Source: Spirochaetota bacterium
Lineage (GTDB): Bacteria; Spirochaetota; UBA4802; UBA5550
Direction of reading: 5' to 3'
Assembly: GCA_963663865.1 (NCBI GenBank)
Contig: OY760686.1
Span: forward strand, 704,001 to 768,000
DNA: 64,000 nucleotides
The notes beneath the pieces are model-generated. The model did no database searches. It was not told where the DNA came from and saw only the letters and a program-made list of their open reading frames with translations. Below, piece by piece: positions 6,815-23,344 of this stretch (position 1 is its first letter; every line of letters begins with the position of its first letter). The position numbers and the translations under genes were made by a program.

Positions 6815-6888
6815 CGCGTCCGGAAGGATTCGAACCTTCGACCTACGGATTCGTAGTCCGGCACTCTATCCAGCTGAGCTACGGACGC
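6815..6888 (-). tRNA. tRNA-Arg(ACG)
   Basis: Minus strand GCGTCCG-TAGCTCAGCTGGATAGAGT-...CT-ACG-AA...GGTTCGAATCC-TTC-CGGACGC-G; acceptor stem pairs; CCA not encoded. Confidence 0.96.
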
Positions 6889-6895
6889 ATATATG

Positions 6896-7282
6896 TTAGA
6901 GATAATCGATCTTATCTGCGAATTTGTCAACAAAAGGTATGGGAAAATTTCTTTTTTTGATCATTGAAGCCGTAGCAGCCGCGCAAAGAGCGAAATAAAG
7001 AAATTCCACAGCATAAACCGCAATAACAGCTGTCAGCTTGAGTATCCTTGATTCAATTCCAATGAATATGAAAGAAATGCCGAGAACAAGAAGGACGGCC
7101 GCAAAAAAAGCCGACATAACAAAGGCACGTCTGACATGAAAAATGAGTTCCCTGTCCTCTCGCCTGAAAGCCGCTGCGGGCCACCATCCGATAAAAGGAA
7201 AGTAGACGCCATAATGCGGAGCGTTCTTCAGAATGATGCGGACGCTCTGGTTTATCTGGTTTAATTTAGCTGTGAGGGCCAT
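6896..7282 (-). CDS. Small integral membrane protein (DUF4870-like)
   Basis: 128 aa with hydrophobic segments, FHVRRA and C-terminal FPIPFV motifs reminiscent of DUF4870 proteins; lies between tRNA genes. Confidence 0.6.
   Translation of the reverse strand: MALTAKLNQINQSVRIILKNAPHYGVYFPFIGWWPAAAFRREDRELIFHVRRAFVMSAFFAAVLLVLGISFIFIGIESRILKLTAVIAVYAVEFLYFALCAAATASMIKKRNFPIPFVDKFADKIDYL
6902..6930 (-). promoter_or_regulatory. Putative sigma70 promoter for tRNA-Arg embedded in the 3' end of the upstream ORF
   Basis: TTGACA-17 nt-GATTAT on minus strand, ending 13 nt before the tRNA 5' end. Confidence 0.45.
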
Positions 7283-7318
7283 CTTTTCCGGTTGTTAACA
7301 TTTTTTTCAGCTACCATT

Positions 7319-7406
7319 CGGAGAGGGGGGGATTCGAACCCCCGGTGCCAGTAATAGGCACTTTTGCTTAGCAGGCAAACCCCTTCGGCCTCTCGGGCAC
7401 CTCTCC
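7319..7406 (-). tRNA. tRNA-Ser(GCT)
   Basis: GGAGAGG...CCTCTCC-G acceptor stem, anticodon loop CT-GCT-AA, long variable arm, GGTTCGAATCC T-loop. Confidence 0.96.
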
Positions 7407-7442
7407 AGAATTATCAGGCAGACTGATCGAAAAGAATCGATG

Positions 7443-7526
7443 CGGAAAGTGAGGGATTCGAACCCCCGGAGCTTTTGGCTCAACGGTTTTCAAGACCGCC
7501 TCCATCGACCACTCGGACAACTTTCC
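7443..7526 (-). tRNA. tRNA-Ser(TGA)
   Basis: GGAAAGT...ACTTTCC-G acceptor stem, anticodon loop CT-TGA-AA, long variable arm, GGTTCGAATCC. Confidence 0.96.
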
Positions 7527-14479: not shown

Positions 14480-14967
14480 TTTATCTCCCCGGTAATTATC
14501 TTGCGTCAAAATGGAGTGTCGATTCTATCTAAACCGGATGAATGCGTCAATTAGTTTTTAGCCCGGCTGTGCTGTGAATATAATTGAGAGCCTGAATGAG
14601 AATTGGACTCTGTTGATTCTATTCTGTTAAGTTTGGACATTAACAATCTCGATTGCCAGGATTAAAAAGTTATATAAATATAACATATATACAAATTATA
14701 ACAAAAAGATAGATGGCTTAAATTTAACCAGCTATTAGTTCTTCTTCACATGCATGAATATAGTTCCCAGAGCATCAATTGATTATTTTGATGCATTTTT
14801 TCAAAAAAAAGTCGTGAAATAGTCCTCCCTTGTCGGGGAGGACGACAGGTATTGAGTTGATATGGTAAGAATAGATCGCATGAGAGTTTTATTTGATTCT
14901 CCTGGGGGAGAGGATTATTATATTTGGGTTCATGGGAATAAAATGCTGGTTGGTGGTTTAACGTATT

Positions 14968-16209
14968 ATGCTACCTAAATTAAATCATTACGATTCCCTT
15001 CCTGGGGTTGTTGTAAACCCGGCGTGTGCGATTGTAATCGGCAATGAGTATTTTGAAATATCAATCAGGCACATTACAGTTGATGCGGGAATAAGAGTAC
15101 TCTCCAAGGTTTTTTCTCGCTCTGCAGGTGTTCCCGGGGACATCGAAAAATGGCTGTGTTTAAATATGGTCAAAGATGTGGCAATACAGGGAGACGGAAA
15201 CAGCTGGAGGATGATCTGTGATAGACTTGAGAATTCCTTTTCTCTTCATCTTACTCACTGCAACGATCTTTTACCGATGGTCGGATTTAACCTACATAAA
15301 AATGAATCAGAAAAAATAGCCGAGCTTCTCCAGTATGGTCTTTTAAAGACAAAATTTATTCCTGACCGATTTACCCGAGAACTTCAGGACATGACGAGAA
15401 TGAGGGAGGAGATAATAGAAAGAATTTCCATGTTGAAATGCAGGATTAGGCTGATTCTGGAGGAAAGTGGAATTTCTCCTTCTCTACTCAGGAGTTTTAA
15501 AGGGATGCTGGATGGGAAAAACAGCGGTTTATATCAAGATGAAAAAGGTTTCACCAAAATTGTTAACTCCAGCTCTGTTTCTGAAAATAAAAAACTAATT
15601 CTGAATATATATGCTTCTGATTTGAGCAAGGCGGAAATGAGTTTTAATCAGATTTCAAACTCAATTGCTGTAATGGACAGGAAATACAGCAATTATATTA
15701 CAAGACTTATAGAAATACCTGGTCTTATAAAAAGATATGCTGAGCGAATAGTGGCTGAAACAGGGACCAATTATGAATGTTTTGACTCATATGAGGATTT
15801 GTTAACCTGGGCTGGTATGGTTCCTTTTTTAGACAATAAAAATTCTAAAAAGGATACTGGGAAAATAGGCAAAAGCGGGAGAGAGTGGTTCAAACGGGCA
15901 ATTACTGATTCTGCGATTGGAGTTGTGAATGCTGGTAGCAGAACTATTTCAGGTAAGTATAAGGAACTCCTTCATAAGTATGGGGTTAGGAAGTCAATGC
16001 TATTTATGGAACAGGCCATTGTATATCTGGTTTTCCGGATTATCAAAGAGGGCAAGAGATATCATGAACTTGAAAAGGATATTCAATCTTCTTTTTTCTT
16101 AAACCAGTCTTCGGGATCAGTCCAGTTGAAAGATGGAAAAGCTTTAGCGGCGCCCTGTCTTGGAAATAAAATCAATTTTAACGAAACCTGGAGGCCGGAT
16201 AGTGATTAA
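14968..16209 (+). CDS. IS110-family recombinase homolog with catalytic residues substituted
   Basis: Retains IS110 scaffold motifs (IAELLQYGLL..FIP..RELQDMTR.R, L.EIPG....AE.IVAETG, F....L..WAG..P, G..Y.EL) but the DEDD and Ser positions read V/Q/H/E and K. Confidence 0.8.
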   Translation: MLPKLNHYDSLPGVVVNPACAIVIGNEYFEISIRHITVDAGIRVLSKVFSRSAGVPGDIEKWLCLNMVKDVAIQGDGNSWRMICDRLENSFSLHLTHCNDLLPMVGFNLHKNESEKIAELLQYGLLKTKFIPDRFTRELQDMTRMREEIIERISMLKCRIRLILEESGISPSLLRSFKGMLDGKNSGLYQDEKGFTKIVNSSSVSENKKLILNIYASDLSKAEMSFNQISNSIAVMDRKYSNYITRLIEIPGLIKRYAERIVAETGTNYECFDSYEDLLTWAGMVPFLDNKNSKKDTGKIGKSGREWFKRAITDSAIGVVNAGSRTISGKYKELLHKYGVRKSMLFMEQAIVYLVFRIIKEGKRYHELEKDIQSSFFLNQSSGSVQLKDGKALAAPCLGNKINFNETWRPDSD

Positions 16210-16309
16210 TTTCTATAAACTTGGGAATTATCAATATGGAGTTATCTTCGTTTCTGAATTGATTTTATCAAATATTTTTATAATCTATTTTAGGAGGAGG
16301 ATTTTTTTG

Positions 16310-18481
16310 ATGAAAAAAATTCTGGTACTTTTAAGTCTCTCCGCAGCTTTTTTCTTTGGTTGTGGGGATGACGGAGACGACTCGAAGGAAGTGGTTGATG
16401 ACACCTGTGTAAGTGTGTATTGTGATGATTCTGGATCACTGGTGCAACCTGAGATAGGTGTGAAAACCGGCAGCGGGAAAACAGTAATAACTGTTGATGG
16501 CTATCAGTTCAAAGATTCAAATGGTAATGGGAGTCTGGATGTTTATGAGGATTGGAGACTTTCGGTTTCCGAGAGAGCTGAGGATCTCGTAGCCAGAATG
16601 ACTGCTAATGAGAAGGCAGGATTCATTAATGCTCCCAGCGTAAGCGGACAGACTACTACAGGATCTCTCAAGAACGAAGACGGTACCTGGATTGAAGATA
16701 ATTCAGGTTATAGAGCTATTACAACGCTATTCAGAAGATTCGGAATGCTCACTTTGTCAGCTTCCTCTGAGCCGGAACGGATTGCGACTTATAATAACAG
16801 TCTAAATGAAATCTGTGAAGGTGTATTGCGGGAGGACGGTTCACTCGGACTTGGAATTCCATTTGTCACTTGCACGAATCCGACGCACGGAACGAACTCA
16901 AACTCAACAGTTCTGGTGTCAGCATGGCCGTACGCGATTGGCCTTGGCGCCATTACTGATCCGGCTGTTATTGAAAAATATGCATTAACGGTGAGGGCTG
17001 AGTTGGCAGCGCTGGGACTCCGTTCTTATTACGGACCGCTCGCAGATGTTGCAACCGAGCCCAGGTGGCAGCGGCAGCAGGAAACCTTCGGCTCAAGTCC
17101 TGAAAGAATAGCTGTATATTCTAATATGGTTATCAGAGCGCTTCAGGGAGGAAATTCACTCAAGCCGGGAGGAATAGTATGCGCGATCAAGCATTTTCCC
17201 GGACATGGCGCCCAAATTAAGGGATTTGATTCTCATTACAAAATGGGAAAATATACAGTTAACCCGGGAAACAACTTTGATATGCATGCTTATCCTTTTG
17301 AGAAGGCATTCAGAGAAGTTAATCCGGCTGCATGTATGCCATGTTATTCGATTTACAGAGATCAGCCTTTTGAACAGGTCGCTGCTGGTTTCAACGCTGA
17401 GATCATGAATGAATTAGGCCGTGATCAGCTTGGGTTTACAGGCTACTATACTTCAGACTGGGGATTGTTCGGGATTGGTGGAGGAGTGGATTCACTTCCT
17501 AATTCAGGAACATTCGCAGCATGGGGGGTTGAGGGGCTGACTTTGCCGGAAAAAATAGGGAAAGCTATGGAAGCCGGAATGGATCAGCTTGGTGGTCACG
17601 GGTCAATAATGGATATTATTGATGCGTTGAGCTACGGATATCTTTCTGAAGAAACTCTGGACAGGGCGTGTGCAAGTATCCTGAAAGGCTATTTCACAAT
17701 GGGTCTGTTTGAGAATCCTTATGTTGATGTGGATGCCGCAGGTACTATTTGTAATAATGCTGAAAGTCAGGCTGCAGGCCTCGATGCAATGCACAAATCA
17801 ATTGTTCTGGTAAAGAACAGTGGCAGCACGCTGCCGGCTGCATCGGGGATCAGTATTTATTACGATGGTACGGTAGATGGATCGGATGCAGCCCAGGCGA
17901 CATTTATCAATGAAACGTATGGTGCAACTGCAGTATCTGATATAACGCTGGCTGACATTGCCGTAATAAGGATAAACGGTCCTGTGATTAGCAGGTTCTA
18001 TCCCAATAAACCGACATTTTTGGGTTACGTTGGTGCAAGCAGCCGTTCACTCCAATATTTAGATGAAGAGCCGGACGCAGAGTATGGCGGTTTATACACC
18101 GAAGATTACACTGATCCTCTTGGCAACGTCCATTATGGAGTAATGAAGTCAGACACCATCGGAGAGTTTGAGAAGATCCTAAACGCAAAAAAAGCCATTA
18201 CAGACGCTGGAGCTTCTACCAAACTTGTCGTACTTGTTAATGCCGACAGGCCTCTGGTAATGAAAGAGTTTATAGATTACGTTGATGCCGCTTTCCTGAC
18301 ATTTGGTGCCAGCGATCGTGCAGTTCTCGATCTGGTATTCTCAAAAGATGGGCTTAAACCTACAGGAGTTCTTCCCTTTGAGCTGCCATCTTCAGATACG
18401 GAGGTTGAAGCACAGTTGGAAGACCTTCAGGATGATACAGATGCTCCTCTATACAAGGCAGGTCATTACCTGACTTATTAA
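16310..18481 (+). CDS. GH3 glycoside hydrolase lipoprotein (paralog 1)
   Basis: RBS AGGAGGAGG, lipobox FFFGC, FKDSNGNGSLDVYEDWRL, ADVATEPRW.R..ETFG, KHFPG, nucleophile SDWG. Confidence 0.92.
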   Translation: MKKILVLLSLSAAFFFGCGDDGDDSKEVVDDTCVSVYCDDSGSLVQPEIGVKTGSGKTVITVDGYQFKDSNGNGSLDVYEDWRLSVSERAEDLVARMTANEKAGFINAPSVSGQTTTGSLKNEDGTWIEDNSGYRAITTLFRRFGMLTLSASSEPERIATYNNSLNEICEGVLREDGSLGLGIPFVTCTNPTHGTNSNSTVLVSAWPYAIGLGAITDPAVIEKYALTVRAELAALGLRSYYGPLADVATEPRWQRQQETFGSSPERIAVYSNMVIRALQGGNSLKPGGIVCAIKHFPGHGAQIKGFDSHYKMGKYTVNPGNNFDMHAYPFEKAFREVNPAACMPCYSIYRDQPFEQVAAGFNAEIMNELGRDQLGFTGYYTSDWGLFGIGGGVDSLPNSGTFAAWGVEGLTLPEKIGKAMEAGMDQLGGHGSIMDIIDALSYGYLSEETLDRACASILKGYFTMGLFENPYVDVDAAGTICNNAESQAAGLDAMHKSIVLVKNSGSTLPAASGISIYYDGTVDGSDAAQATFINETYGATAVSDITLADIAVIRINGPVISRFYPNKPTFLGYVGASSRSLQYLDEEPDAEYGGLYTEDYTDPLGNVHYGVMKSDTIGEFEKILNAKKAITDAGASTKLVVLVNADRPLVMKEFIDYVDAAFLTFGASDRAVLDLVFSKDGLKPTGVLPFELPSSDTEVEAQLEDLQDDTDAPLYKAGHYLTY

Positions 18482-18505
18482 GAAAGACTATTCTGAAGTA
18501 TTCCT

Positions 18506-18537
18506 GCTCCCCGGCATTTCCTGTCGGGGAGTGTTTT
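18506..18537 (+). terminator. Rho-independent terminator after GH3 paralog 1
   Basis: CTCCCCGGCA-loop-TGTCGGGGAG followed by TGTTTT. Confidence 0.65.
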
Positions 18538-18701
18538 AGAAAATATCTGAAACTGCCAGCCAGCAGTTGGCAGATGTGGATGAGGTAAGTCTGAGTTTCT
18601 GTGTCGATATATTTGCTTTGGGGTTGAATCTGTCATACTTTCTTGATGCCATCGGGTTTCTGAAAAAACTAAAATTCAGCGTTGTGGATAAAGTCGAAAT
18701 A

Positions 18702-19898
18702 ATGATTAAGTATAATATAATTACGATAATAGCAATACTCGGATTTGGTCAGGGAGTATTTCTTGCAATTGTTCTGGCAACATCAAAGCAGAACCGTCAG
18801 TCCAACAGGATACTATCAATTTTTATGTTGATACAAGCCGTTGTTTTAGCTTCAAACTGTGTTTTTTCGCCGGATGTTCAGTTGAACCTGCCGCATCTTT
18901 TACGAATCGACTGGCCGCTCTCAATGGCTTTTGGGCCTATTTTTTATTTTTATTATTCCTCCATTCTTGAAAAAAATTTCAAGTTTAAAGCTTACCATAT
19001 TCTTCTTTTTATTCCATTTTTTTTATCAGTGCTGTTTCTAATGCCTCTGTTCGTTCTGGATGGACCCACCAAAACAGATATTCTGAATGCATCTCACAAT
19101 GGAAGAACTCCATCTTCATTAACCTCATATTCCTGGAGTTTCAAATATTTAGTTCCAGCACTTCAGATACAGATGGCTATTTATTGCGGGATATGTATCC
19201 AACGGATAAAGAAATACAGAAAAGAACTCTATAATTACAAATCAAATATCAGCAAAGAGAGTCTTTCCTGGCTTTTATATCTTTCCATAATCATGATTAT
19301 AACTCACCTGTTTAATCTGGTTGGTTTTACTGCTACAGTTTTTTTTGGTAACAAGATAGTTCACCATTCTTATTTAAGCGACAGTCTTGGCGCTATGGTA
19401 GCGCGTAATATAGCCCCTCTTGAGTTTGCTTTGCTCACATACATGATTGGTTATAAAGCCTTAAAACAAAGTGAACTATCTATGATCAGAGAAATCACGA
19501 AGACGCAGAGGAAATATGAGAAGTCATCCTTAACCGATGAAGAGAGCAAAACTATTATGAGTGAACTTTCCACAATCATGACAGAGGAAAAGGCATATAT
19601 GGATTCGGAACTTAATATTGTTTCGCTTGCAGAAAAACTTTCGATCAGCCGACATCATTTGTCTCAGGTTATAAATAGACAGACTGGTAAAAACTTTTAT
19701 GAATATATTAATAACTATAGAATAAATGAAATAATATTTATGCTTCAGTCCGGATTTAATGAAAATAAAAATATTCTCGACGTGGCGTATAGGTCAGGTT
19801 TTGATTCCAAGTCTGCTTTTTACAAATATTTTCGAAAAATTACTGGAATGTCTCCCAGGGAATATATCACAACGAATAAAATGAACAACTTGCAATAA
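18702..19898 (+). CDS. Multi-TM membrane-anchored AraC-family regulator
   Basis: About 7 hydrophobic helices, KYEKSSL linker, HHLSQVIN..GKNFYEYINNYRI, SGFDSKSAFYKYFRKITGMSP. Confidence 0.9.
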   Translation: MIKYNIITIIAILGFGQGVFLAIVLATSKQNRQSNRILSIFMLIQAVVLASNCVFSPDVQLNLPHLLRIDWPLSMAFGPIFYFYYSSILEKNFKFKAYHILLFIPFFLSVLFLMPLFVLDGPTKTDILNASHNGRTPSSLTSYSWSFKYLVPALQIQMAIYCGICIQRIKKYRKELYNYKSNISKESLSWLLYLSIIMIITHLFNLVGFTATVFFGNKIVHHSYLSDSLGAMVARNIAPLEFALLTYMIGYKALKQSELSMIREITKTQRKYEKSSLTDEESKTIMSELSTIMTEEKAYMDSELNIVSLAEKLSISRHHLSQVINRQTGKNFYEYINNYRINEIIFMLQSGFNENKNILDVAYRSGFDSKSAFYKYFRKITGMSPREYITTNKMNNLQ

Positions 19899-20115: not shown

Positions 20116-20568
20116 ATGTACACAATGAAGCAGGCAGCTGAGCTGACAAAAATGTCGGTCCATACGCTGAGGTTCTATGCCAATAAAGGATTGTTCCCAT
20201 TTATTTCGCGCGATTATAACAATGTCAGATGGTTCTCCGACGAGGATATCGAAAAAATAAAGGTAGTCCTTTGTCTGAGAAAAACAGGGATGCCAATTTC
20301 CGATATCAAAAGCTATCTGTTAATGTGTGTTTCCGGCGAAGACAAAAAATTTGATAAGAGGTACGAGCTGTTTGTCCGTCAGGAAAAGAAAGCAGTACAG
20401 GAACTGGAGGAATTAAAAGAGCAAATAGAGCATTTGCAGTTAAAGATGGAATACTATCGAGAGTGTATTGAAGTGGGTAGGCATTTAAACTATTATCAGT
20501 ATGTGAAGGACATAGAAAAGAGATCTAAAAACAGGAATGCTGTTAAAAGAAAGAAGGCTGCCATTTAA
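20116..20568 (+). CDS. MerR-family regulator (AdhR/NmlR/YyaN-like), copy 1
   Basis: HTLRFYANKGL, RD.NN.R.F, CLRKTGM, C-terminal coiled coil. Confidence 0.92.
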   Translation: MYTMKQAAELTKMSVHTLRFYANKGLFPFISRDYNNVRWFSDEDIEKIKVVLCLRKTGMPISDIKSYLLMCVSGEDKKFDKRYELFVRQEKKAVQELEELKEQIEHLQLKMEYYRECIEVGRHLNYYQYVKDIEKRSKNRNAVKRKKAAI

Positions 20569-20580
20569 GGCAGCCTTCTT
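20551..20580. terminator. Bidirectional terminator overlapping the MerR-1 stop
   Basis: AAGAAGGCTGCC-ATTTAA-GGCAGCCTTCTT, 12-bp perfect stem between convergent genes. Confidence 0.7.
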
Positions 20581-20605
20581 AATAATAGACTCAAGACTTA
20601 TCAGA

Positions 20606-23122
20606 TCACCAGGTAAGACCGAAACCTGCCGCATAAGTCGGGTCTACGTCATCATTCATCACGTCCTCGTACTGTGCTTCCACTGCTTCATCAGATGATG
20701 GGAAGTTCCATGGCAGATGAGAAGTCGGAGCAAATCCGTCAACTGCAAAGAGGACCTCCATGAGTTGATCGTCGTAGATTCCAAATTCGATCATAAATGC
20801 ATCTATCTGATCTATCCATGGTTCAACAACCATTGGTCTTGGAGTAAAAGCAACAAGAACTATCTTTACGTTTCTGCCTTCACTTGCGGCTGCCTGTTTT
20901 ACTGCAATCGCGTTATTGATGGCTTCCATCTGTGATAGGGCTGCAGAGTAGTTGCCGTCACGTCCAATGTATCCTCCGCTTGAGTAGTCGACTCCGTCTA
21001 CTTCTGTTGTACCTCCGCCGTTATCAGTTCCACCCGGTCCGGCTGTAGAGTTGATTAGAGCTACATGTTCATCCCATGTACGGTGTCTCCATTCTTCCTC
21101 ATAGTAGTTGAGAAGTGGAGTTTCGTACGAAAGTGGAACCCCGCCTGTGAGACCTCCGTATGTTCCGAATCGTCCTGACACCCTCAGAACAATTACGTCC
21201 GCAGCTGTAATGTCTTCTGTAACATTGGCAGTGGGCAGGTAATCTTCGATAGCAGCATCATCGGTTATACCATCGTAATAAACAACATATTGCGCAGAAT
21301 CTTCCTGGAGAGGTAATATGTCCCCTTCATTCTTAAGAAGTACACAGGCCCGTTTACGCATTTCTTTTTGCTTTGATGTGAATTCTTCAGAAGCCAAAAA
21401 TGCCTGACTTTCTTCAAGGTCCGTATATGGATTTTCAAACAGACCCATTCTCATATAGGTCTCAAGAACCTTGCCAGCAACTTCGTCAATATCTGCTTCT
21501 GTCAGGAATCCTGCATTATAGGCATTTACCCATATTGTGGGCTGTGCCTGACCGAGCTGGTGACCTCCGGCTTTAGCATATCTCATAACAATATAGTGCT
21601 GTTGTTCTATAGCTCCATATACGTCTCCATAACGGCCTGAAATGACAGATGGAGTCCAGTCCTCAAATTGAGGGGCGGTTTCAGGAATGTCTGTTGGTGA
21701 AGCAGGATTTGTCTGAAATGAGAAGGTAAAAGTTTCAGAAGCCTCATCATAATTGTCTATGTAGACAGAATCAGGATAACCCATGTCGGCGAGCCTGAGA
21801 CCATAGTCTCTGGATCCCGAGTTTCCGACACCCCAGTCAGAGGTAACCATACCGTCCCAGCCCCAATCATCGCGAAGAATTTCCTGCATAAGATGTTCTT
21901 CATAGCTGGCGGCTATATAGTCCAGAGTAGTCTGGGCAAATGTATTGGTAGCTGTATTATAGTCAGTAAGATACAGACTATAGCAGGGCATTAAAGCGAG
22001 AGGACCTGCTTCACAGGCAATTTCAAATGCTCGAAGGTGCTCTTCCAGGTTATTACCTTTCATCGGCGCAAAGCGGCCATGATATGTGTGGCTGTCCATT
22101 CCTCCGACATTTGTTCCAGCACCAGGGTAGTGTTTAAGAGTACAGGCAACTCCGGGAATAGGATGCCCGTAGAATCCGTCATCAACACCCTGGAGGCCCT
22201 GCATATAAGCCTTAGTGTTTTCACCAGCTGCTTCACAGGTCGGTCCGCCCATTGTGTCGTATGCCCTTGCCCAGCGGGGTTCTGATAGCGGGTCGCACTG
22301 CGGGCCGTAAATGATTCTGATACCGCCTGCCCTGTAAGCTTGAGCGTGTAAACTTCCTATTTCTTTTGCGTATTCCGGGTCGTTGATCGCACCGAAGGCC
22401 TGGGTGAAAGCCCAGTTTCCGACTATGTCTCCGCCATTTTGTTTAGCAAAGTTAGTCGCAGCGGCATTGTTTCCGGTTCCGGTACATGGGTCGCAGCAGA
22501 ATGCATAGGGGATCCCGTATGTTGTACGTTCACAGGTTCTCTGAACAGCATTAACCAGATTGATCCGTGTTTCCACATCTCCACTTGGTCCACCCATACC
22601 CATTCTTGTATTGTTCATTGGGCCTACTTCTGCGTCGGGACCCCATCCGACAGGAATTCCAGCCCAGCCGTCGTCGCCAATCGCAAAACTTGCCATGTAG
22701 ACGGTTAAAAGGCCTGCTTTTGCTTCAATATCTCCCGACATATTGGAGAGAAGGTCTGCAACACGCGTCTCCAGCGAAAGCCTCCAGTCCTCATAGTCAT
22801 CAAGTTCGTTGTTTTTATTCAGGTCCCTGAATTGGAATGTTACCGGGTCGCCGGCAATTTCATTTTCACCTGTAGCCTCCGGTGTGACCTGTACCTCTAA
22901 AATAGAGACTCCTGTTCCCTCTCTAACCTCGACTTCAGGCTGCCCCTGAACGCCGTCATAACAATACAGGCTGTTATCATCAATACATTTGATGTCTGTA
23001 ATTGTGACCGGCACGACGGGCGCAGGTGTTGATTTTTTGTCGTCATCGCTGCAGGCAGTAAAGGTCATTGAAAAACCAATAGTTGCTAACAGGAGAAACA
23101 AAAATGTTAGATTTTTTTTCAT
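20606..23122 (-). CDS. GH3 glycoside hydrolase lipoprotein (paralog 2)
   Basis: Lipobox FTAC, FRDLNKNNELDDYEDWRL, EPRWAR, KHYPG, MPCYS, SDWG, GLFENPY, VLLKN. Confidence 0.9.
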   Translation of the reverse strand: MKKNLTFLFLLLATIGFSMTFTACSDDDKKSTPAPVVPVTITDIKCIDDNSLYCYDGVQGQPEVEVREGTGVSILEVQVTPEATGENEIAGDPVTFQFRDLNKNNELDDYEDWRLSLETRVADLLSNMSGDIEAKAGLLTVYMASFAIGDDGWAGIPVGWGPDAEVGPMNNTRMGMGGPSGDVETRINLVNAVQRTCERTTYGIPYAFCCDPCTGTGNNAAATNFAKQNGGDIVGNWAFTQAFGAINDPEYAKEIGSLHAQAYRAGGIRIIYGPQCDPLSEPRWARAYDTMGGPTCEAAGENTKAYMQGLQGVDDGFYGHPIPGVACTLKHYPGAGTNVGGMDSHTYHGRFAPMKGNNLEEHLRAFEIACEAGPLALMPCYSLYLTDYNTATNTFAQTTLDYIAASYEEHLMQEILRDDWGWDGMVTSDWGVGNSGSRDYGLRLADMGYPDSVYIDNYDEASETFTFSFQTNPASPTDIPETAPQFEDWTPSVISGRYGDVYGAIEQQHYIVMRYAKAGGHQLGQAQPTIWVNAYNAGFLTEADIDEVAGKVLETYMRMGLFENPYTDLEESQAFLASEEFTSKQKEMRKRACVLLKNEGDILPLQEDSAQYVVYYDGITDDAAIEDYLPTANVTEDITAADVIVLRVSGRFGTYGGLTGGVPLSYETPLLNYYEEEWRHRTWDEHVALINSTAGPGGTDNGGGTTEVDGVDYSSGGYIGRDGNYSAALSQMEAINNAIAVKQAAASEGRNVKIVLVAFTPRPMVVEPWIDQIDAFMIEFGIYDDQLMEVLFAVDGFAPTSHLPWNFPSSDEAVEAQYEDVMNDDVDPTYAAGFGLTW

Positions 23123-23344
23123 GAAAAAAATCCTCCTCCTAAGATATAGTGTTTAAAATAATAAATCCGTACATTAGCCGCCGAAGAGTCACCAGAATAG
23201 AGCTCTCACATTATCAAAGCATTACAATCCCCATAATGCCCCGTCAATACTCCAACGGAGGTCTCCAACGGAAACGGACGGTTTATTTGCCTTTTTGGGA
23301 TGGATTGGTAATCCACTAAAATCATGTGGGGCCTTTCTACGAGT

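Follow-up and report, generated by a model that had tools for sequence, protein, structure and literature searches.

The 64,000-nucleotide stretch of a Spirochaetota genome considered here (the window; contig OY760686.1, positions 704,001 to 768,000) carries at 14968-16209, on the forward strand, a gene that we call par0 and that encodes a 413-residue homologue of the IS110-type recombinases, predicted to be dead for recombination. Among RNA-guided DNA enzymes, the IS110 recombinases are the newest class. The gene is followed in the same orientation by a GH3 glycoside hydrolase gene whose product has a lipoprotein-like signal peptide (16310-18481, +; Pfam Glyco_hydro_3, 102.8 bits) and, as the third gene of the module, by one for a membrane-anchored AraC-type regulator with a hydrophobic N-terminal part and a C-terminal HTH_18/HTH_AraC domain (18567-19898, +; Pfam). 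Only 100 nucleotides (nt) separate par0 from the GH3 gene, the ATG of which, at 16310, stands behind the ribosome-binding site AGGAGGAGG, and a scan between 16209 and 16310 found no terminator-like site. From this arrangement, par0 and the GH3 gene are probably co-transcribed. An earlier note on this DNA had described a co-oriented GH3 gene 100 nt downstream within a regulator-rich carbohydrate island, and the Pfam assignments of the GH3 and regulator genes uphold both statements.

The par0 reading frame runs through 413 codons without an internal stop to a stop codon at 16207-16209. At the AT-rich composition of the gene, a run of this length would be open by chance with a probability of about 2e-14, and none of 20000 shuffles was open. 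When a profile of eight paralogues (see below) was aligned by hhalign with a profile of 24 canonical IS110 relatives, the match extended over 369 columns, which is near full length, with a probability of 100 and an E value of 2.4e-58, and the order of RuvC-like domain, coiled coil and Tnp domain was found to be kept in par0. Profile-profile column mapping places the degenerate RuvC-like domain at approximately residues 12-128 (15001-15351, +). It is followed by the coiled-coil and variable region, which includes RELQDMTRMRE, at approximately residues 129-239 (15352-15684, +), and by the Tnp domain (Pfam Transposase_20) at about residues 240-375 (15685-16092, +), in which IPG, AETG and WAG are kept and the Ser loop is replaced. 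FIPDR is kept as well, and these structural motifs are invariant across the paralogues. The hidden Markov model (HMM) search that the earlier note had proposed gave a divided answer: Transposase_20 (PF02371) scored 33 bits over residues 246-323, above its cut-off of 21.3, whereas DEDD_Tnp_IS110 (PF01548), with 19.4 bits, fell short of its cut-off of 29 and matched residues 114-166 with a C-terminal piece of the profile only. Since hhalign aligns par0 there, the homology of the RuvC-like domain is clear despite this low score. The NCBIfam IS110 equivalog NF033542 scored 63 bits, below its cut-off of 140. At E values up to 1, the Pfam search of par0 returned the two IS110 domains alone and neither a Nop domain nor any Nop-type family. 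Against solved structures, phmmer with par0 alone gave chance-level matches only, and the family profile matched the Tnp domain to IS621 (8wt6_A, residues 173-272, E 6e-6) and ISCro4 (E 2e-5).

In par0 the columns of the DEDD active site are occupied by V23 (first Asp), Q74 (Glu), H110 (third Asp) and E113 (fourth Asp), and that of the Ser nucleophile by K291; S293 falls under the Gly that follows the catalytic Ser (hhalign). MAFFT and hmmalign to the canonical HMM gave the same mapping, which is identical to the one made by eye in the earlier note, so that a proper alignment does not bring DEDD or Ser back. The intact frame, the IS110 scaffold from end to end, the kept motifs and the change at every catalytic position, all read from the letters in that note, were likewise confirmed. 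par0 is a full-length IS110 homologue that lacks all five catalytic residues. Since these residues are lost, and since mutation of any one of D11, E60, D102, D105 and S241 is reported to have abolished recombination by IS621 (PMC11208158), par0 is predicted to be dead as a recombinase.

The same holds throughout the family. By hmmalign the D/E/D/D/S columns read VQHEK in par0, VQKEG in par1, LINEE in par2, SVPID in par3, NDDDK in par4, IMYES in par5, YA-II in par6 and ----V in both par7 and par8. No more than two of the five exact residues are kept in any of 13 aligned family rows, and the first Asp is kept in none of them. Among the nine paralogues, par5 alone has a Ser at the Ser column, and it has no DEDD residue. 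Nor does the family have a new Asp, Ser, Tyr, His or Lys among its invariant columns. By contrast, 132 of 177 other database relatives read DEDDS, the remainder being mostly fragments or carrying Thr for Ser. Four otherwise canonical IS110 relatives with altered catalytic columns, P0101 (TEDDN), P0164 (VEED-), P0170 (EEDDR) and P0174 (DEDDR), may represent independent inactivations elsewhere, to judge from these substitutions.

The genome is a single contig of 3.16 Mb and holds nine IS110-like genes, par0 to par8. They start at genome positions 718968 (par0, +), 557202 (par1, +), 599864 (par2, +), 91811 (par3, -), 1075528 (par4, +), 62972 (par5, -), 57420 (par6, -), 44019 (par7, -) and 218358 (par8, -). 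All nine lie between 42 kb and 1.08 Mb, in the first third of the chromosome, with par5, par6 and par7 inside 20 kb. Every copy is open, with lengths of 334-413 residues, at pairwise identities of 19-49%. The earlier note had expected a single-copy gene, which proved wrong. Of the combination of multiple copies with variable flanks, which it had counted against its own proposal, the multiple copies are present but the variable flanks are not, a GH3 gene adjoining or lying near each copy. Since tblastn with all nine paralogues over the whole genome at E values up to 10 found nothing beyond these nine loci, and since genome scans with PF01548 and PF02371 returned the same loci only and no canonical IS110, there is no canonical IS110 able to act in trans. 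PF02371 exceeded its cut-off in eight of the nine paralogues, while that of PF01548 was passed only by par4 (49.8 bits) and, marginally, by par2.

Relative to the canonical proteins, all nine paralogues are missing about 19 residues after the first coiled-coil helix (MAFFT, hhalign), and the RuvC-like part of par8 is shortened. A quick maximum-likelihood tree united 12 of the 13 family rows in one clade with a Shimodaira-Hasegawa-like approximate likelihood ratio (SH-aLRT) support of 96, par8 falling outside on a very long branch, and the family branches were 2-5 times the length of canonical ones. Since the copies form one clade, share the deletion of about 19 residues and vary freely at the catalytic columns, the simplest reading of these sequences would be that the active site was lost once in an ancestor and that its former positions drifted freely afterwards. 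There is no sign of mobility among them: near-identical copies are absent, and with 49% as the highest pairwise identity the paralogues differ far too much for an active insertion sequence (IS). This is unlike the situation in one relative (G011), where eight canonical IS110 places, six with identical scores and full open frames and two more close by, suggest an active IS.

Purifying selection acts on the family, most strongly on the coiled coil and the Tnp domain and most weakly on the dead RuvC-like domain. Between par0 and its closest paralogue par1, the nonsynonymous rate (dN) by the Nei-Gojobori method (NG86) was 0.39 and the synonymous rate (dS) 1.71, giving a dN/dS of about 0.23. Since dS is near saturation, this ratio is more likely to be an overestimate than an underestimate. 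Over the same two modules (par0, window 14968-19898; par1, genome 557202-562098) the GH3 and AraC genes gave ratios of 0.135 and 0.25, respectively. The par7 orthologue trio (par7, P0043 and P0191; 74-80% identity) was compared column by column. Invariant columns made up 52-58% of residues 1-120, 85-92% of residues 121-240 and 68-78% of residues 241-320, so that the coiled coil is the most conserved part and the dead RuvC-like part the least. In IS621, the coiled coil is described as mediating dimerisation (PMC11208158). The pattern in the trio fits a protein that would be kept for dimerisation and nucleic-acid contact and not for catalysis. With a dN/dS below 1, the check named in the earlier note, together with nine intact paralogues and the domain-specific conservation of the orthologues, its preference for selection over random decay is borne out. 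Furthermore, since each copy resembles its GH3 neighbour in G+C content at third codon positions, over a range of 29%-58%, the genes appear to have resided in place for a long time.

The position of the copies is as consistent as their frames. A co-oriented GH3 gene lies 50-422 nt away from eight of the nine. The copy stands 5' of GH3 in par0 (gap 100 nt), par1 (141), par2 (422), par3 (50), par4 (167) and par8 (82) and 3' of it in par6 (199) and par7 (161). The remaining copy, par5, is farther from GH3: it stands 1.8 kb 5' of the same-strand GH3 gene located ahead of par6, and one open reading frame on the opposite strand comes between. The genome has about 26 GH3 loci (from 29 high-scoring segment pairs), of which eight carry IS110-like neighbours, and this adjacency is far beyond chance. 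A membrane-anchored AraC-type regulator was found near eight of the nine copies by Pfam and by paralogous regulators, the exception being par4. At seven loci of AraC homologues from relatives, no GH3 or IS110-like gene was present within 1.5 kb. A closely related sister GH3-AraC module (genome 570178-573879, -) has no IS110-like gene; its GH3 gene occupies two overlapping frames, apparently through a frameshift. The GH3 genes also have a 5' element in common: a 40-nt translation-initiation region at 16285-16324 (+), consisting of AGGAGGAGG and ATG AAA AAA ATT, recurs with 0-7 mismatches at five GH3 genes, four of which follow par0, par1, par3 and par4; these places include 23108-23147 (-) of the window. 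The GH3 proteins that share this region are only 30-84% identical, and metagenome contigs break at it.

Orthologues of the family occur in at least two other assemblies. P0190 is the par1 orthologue (97% match) and P0038 the par3 orthologue (97%), P0043 and P0191 match par7 at 79-80%, and P0044 is a further family member. A HMMER search with the family profile against 1.84 billion cluster representatives returned 18323 proteins at E values up to 0.001. Eight of them scored 285 bits or more, all family members, and the next proteins scored at most 228 bits, those read being canonical enzymes. In 40 relatives from the same family and order, the top match apart from self was a canonical IS110 protein with intact motifs (185 bits; G017). 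P0043 had no match at E values up to 1e-20 in 63 other genomes of the same taxonomic family, and searches of genome and metagenome contigs for orthologue DNA with P0043, P0001 and P0044 gave no match. On these searches the family is confined to a narrow lineage.

From the loss of catalysis, the paralogy, the gene context and the purifying selection described above, we consider it likely, at a rough probability of 0.6, that the par0 family represents lineage-specific, exapted, recombination-dead descendants of an IS110 bridge recombinase that serve as a non-catalytic factor of GH3 operons. Sequence comparison supports par0 as a putative domesticated derivative of this kind and a fixed part of the GH3-AraC modules. 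The active site would have been lost once, in the ancestor of the family, and the gene would then have multiplied along with, or beside, the GH3 modules. The product would still dimerise via its coiled coil and bind nucleic acid via its Tnp domain, as suggested by the parts that are conserved and by IS621, and would serve the GH3 operon to which it belongs in an accessory or regulatory capacity, without catalysing a reaction. It is from position that we infer regulation of its own operon. RNA guidance, put forward in the earlier note, is no more than a possibility.

Several observations weigh against this reading. Divergence is much faster in the IS110-like genes than in the genes beside them, par0 and par1 being 49% identical where the neighbouring genes are 84% identical, and par4 and par7 being 19% identical where their GH3 genes are 72% identical; in this second pair the copies also lie on opposite sides of GH3. 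Therefore either the constraint is weak or the pairing of IS110-like and GH3 genes is unstable, and the pairing is not simply co-inherited. The par0-par1 dS, besides its near-saturation, is uneven along the module, dropping from 1.71 in the IS110-like gene to 0.76 in GH3 and 0.43 in AraC, a gradient suggestive of gene conversion in the enzyme and regulator genes or of parts with different histories and ages. The nine GH3 adjacencies may not be independent if whole modules were duplicated, and the sister module does without an IS110-like gene. For par0 itself there is no cluster mate at 90% identity in a second genome. Finally, the par3 orthologue in one ENA assembly exists as two pieces of 227 and 58 residues (P0188 and P0189; 183297-bp contig), which could reflect either a genuine frameshift or a mistake in the assembly.

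The fast divergence, the empty sister module and the split orthologue, together with the loss of all catalytic residues and the narrow lineage, are what would be expected if the genes were neutral relics, that is, if an old IS110 insertion had been copied passively with the GH3-AraC duplications and were slowly decaying without a function. We nevertheless find this unlikely. Neutral decay would yield stops, with one such frame staying open at a chance of about 2e-14, yet all nine are open at 19-49% identity. The dN/dS of 0.23, the invariance of the structural motifs across the paralogues and the uneven conservation, with coiled coil and Tnp domain kept and the RuvC-like domain relaxed, likewise speak against decay.

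A bolder version of the exaptation model would make the nine paralogues the IS110 counterpart of TldR, each a dimeric protein with its own upstream RNA that binds its own GH3-AraC promoter in the manner of a bridge RNA complex. If true, the genome would hold programmable regulators of glycan use, each specific to its locus and all derived from a single transposase. The concept is that of TldR, described as an RNA-guided transposon enzyme that has become non-catalytic and that the host retains beside genes under its control (10.1101/2023.11.30.569447; 10.64898/2026.09.22.753285). Loss of catalysis with the fold kept is seen in the par0 family by hhalign, hmmalign and orthologue conservation. 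TldR differs in its TnpB/IS605 descent, which is unrelated to the IS110 descent of par0, and in having an identified guide RNA and identified targets. The IS110-type guide RNA is described as lying in the non-coding region upstream of the gene (PMC11187229), and most family copies likewise have an upstream non-coding stretch, about 150-790 nt over the nine. Neither a common sequence nor a consistently stable fold was found upstream of the paralogues, and hence no conserved guide-like RNA: the fold z-scores of the 150 nt upstream of eight paralogues were -1.9, -2.5, -3.2, -0.3, +0.9, +1.3, -1.6 and -4.6, the last being a terminator-like hairpin. Rfam at E values up to 1 gave nothing relevant at the eight paralogue loci. 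Since Rfam also detected no bridge RNA at eight loci of relatives that match the family profile, one of which (L010) was inspected and confirmed as canonical, this negative is uninformative, Rfam being equally blind at IS110 loci of relatives. We regard a bridge-RNA-guided set of regulators as a doubtful proposition. Some 600 nt in front of par5, Rfam placed a 5S rRNA gene (L006 3237-3353, -).

The upstream regions of par0 and par1 have a single conserved block in common, an imperfect palindrome of 22 nt with a TTGTCG-N7-CGACAG core that lies about 120 nt before the par0 start (14827-14848, +). It is identical at 21 of 22 positions in the par1 module (genome 557056-557077, +), is expected by chance 0.02 times in the window and can form two alternative hairpins. 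A further copy, with four mismatches, stands directly upstream of the sister module (genome 573858-573879, -). Since the palindrome also fronts this GH3-AraC pair, which is without an IS110-like gene, its placement suggests a putative operator or leader RNA hairpin of the operon and not a guide.

The link to GH3 could alternatively be a trace of old insertion specificity and have no bearing on present function, if an active ancestor with a guide matching sequence near GH3 genes had inserted several times independently and its copies had been inactivated later. IS110 elements are described as inserting at specific, often repeated, intergenic sequences (PMC11187229; 10.64898/2026.03.19.712850), the conserved short elements at the 5' ends of the GH3 genes would offer candidates, and the contrast between par4 and par7 and their GH3 genes is of the kind that separate insertions would leave. 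This history would require many independent losses of five residues, whereas the dead copies form one clade with a common deletion, and it leaves the open frames unexplained. Furthermore, no motif common to the nine modules rises above control level: a 10-mer search of their intergenic DNA, allowing one mismatch, reached eight of the nine with AT-rich words only, where controls reached 5-7. We therefore rate target-site preference as a rather improbable origin of the association.

The product could also resemble Nop5, with the dead RuvC-like domain recruiting a partner, such as the AraC regulator or an RNA-modifying or RNA-processing enzyme, while the coiled coil and the C-terminal helical domain hold RNA, which would make it a ribonucleoprotein component and not a DNA-binding regulator. 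In Nop5, Nop56 and Nop58, according to the description, the N-terminal domain is RuvC-like but inactivated and is accompanied by a coiled coil and a C-terminal domain of helices, and an ancient IS110-like exaptation has been proposed for Nop5 (10.1101/2024.06.21.599552). The par0 family has the same three-part architecture by hhalign, with the coiled coil as its most constrained part, and the proposal provides a precedent for non-catalytic reuse. In contrast, Nop5 is archaeal and eukaryotic, universal there, and works with fibrillarin and C/D RNAs, whereas the par0 family is recent, bacterial, limited to one narrow lineage, attached to carbohydrate genes and without a match to any Nop-type family at E values up to 1. 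The RuvC-like domain is also its least conserved part and is shortened in par8, which argues against a conserved partner surface, so that a Nop5-like scaffold seems a poor candidate. Least credible of all is a recombinase that is still active through a non-canonical active site, for example shuffling or inverting GH3 cassettes. In its favour, Piv-type IS110 relatives are site-specific invertases (PMC11187229), par4 keeps three acidic residues in a RuvC-like domain that passes Pfam, and par5 and P0044 have Ser at the aligned Ser column, but the first Asp is present in no member, the acidic residues and Ser are combined in none, no new catalytic candidate appears among the family-invariant columns, and single mutations at these sites abolish the activity of IS621 (PMC11208158).

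The par0 family shares with the bridge-RNA or seekRNA recombinases of IS110 (IS621, ISCro4) its full-length homology and domain order, including a Tnp profile that matches both structures. It differs from them in the absence of DEDD and Ser, in the scores of par0 below the NF033542 and PF01548 cut-offs, and in having no near-identical copies, no sign of mobility and a fixed gene context. The Piv/MooV invertases, described as IS110 relatives that serve the host at a fixed chromosomal locus (PMC11187229), are close in this last respect; Piv, however, is active and needs the conserved catalytic motifs that the par0 family is without. By descent par0 is an IS110 homologue, but it falls short of the catalytic features that define the family and of the curated thresholds, and filing it as a transposase would be wrong. 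Such genes are likely to be labelled "IS110 family transposase", a label that overstates their mobility.

A full-text literature search found no bacterial family of catalytically dead IS110 proteins, with the limit that inactive homologues could appear in the supplementary tables to the papers on bridge RNAs and Nop5; Bertels et al. 2017 used IS110 as a comparison family only (PMC5581495). The sole described reuse of the IS110 fold that we found is the very old, and merely proposed, link to Nop5. A recent bacterial family in which a bridge recombinase has turned non-catalytic would amount to a natural experiment, with nine variants in one genome. Should an RNA partner exist, the product would be a compact protein that binds programmably and does not cut; if not, the coiled coil and Tnp domain would form a scaffold useful on its own.

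In metagenome data, a 151-nt contig (run X10) joins 14877 to 16115 and so skips par0 nearly exactly. With 39 nt on its shorter side and a depth of 3.8 it is too weak for calling a deletion variant, and it could derive from a strain without par0 or from a cross-match to another module. Divergent metagenome pieces at 80% likeness probably come from the paralogous par1 module. Elsewhere in the window, Rfam at gathering level reported three tRNAs only (6815-7526, -), and the par0 module is followed, at 20116-23122, by a MerR-type regulator gene (+) and a second GH3 gene (-, 838 residues).

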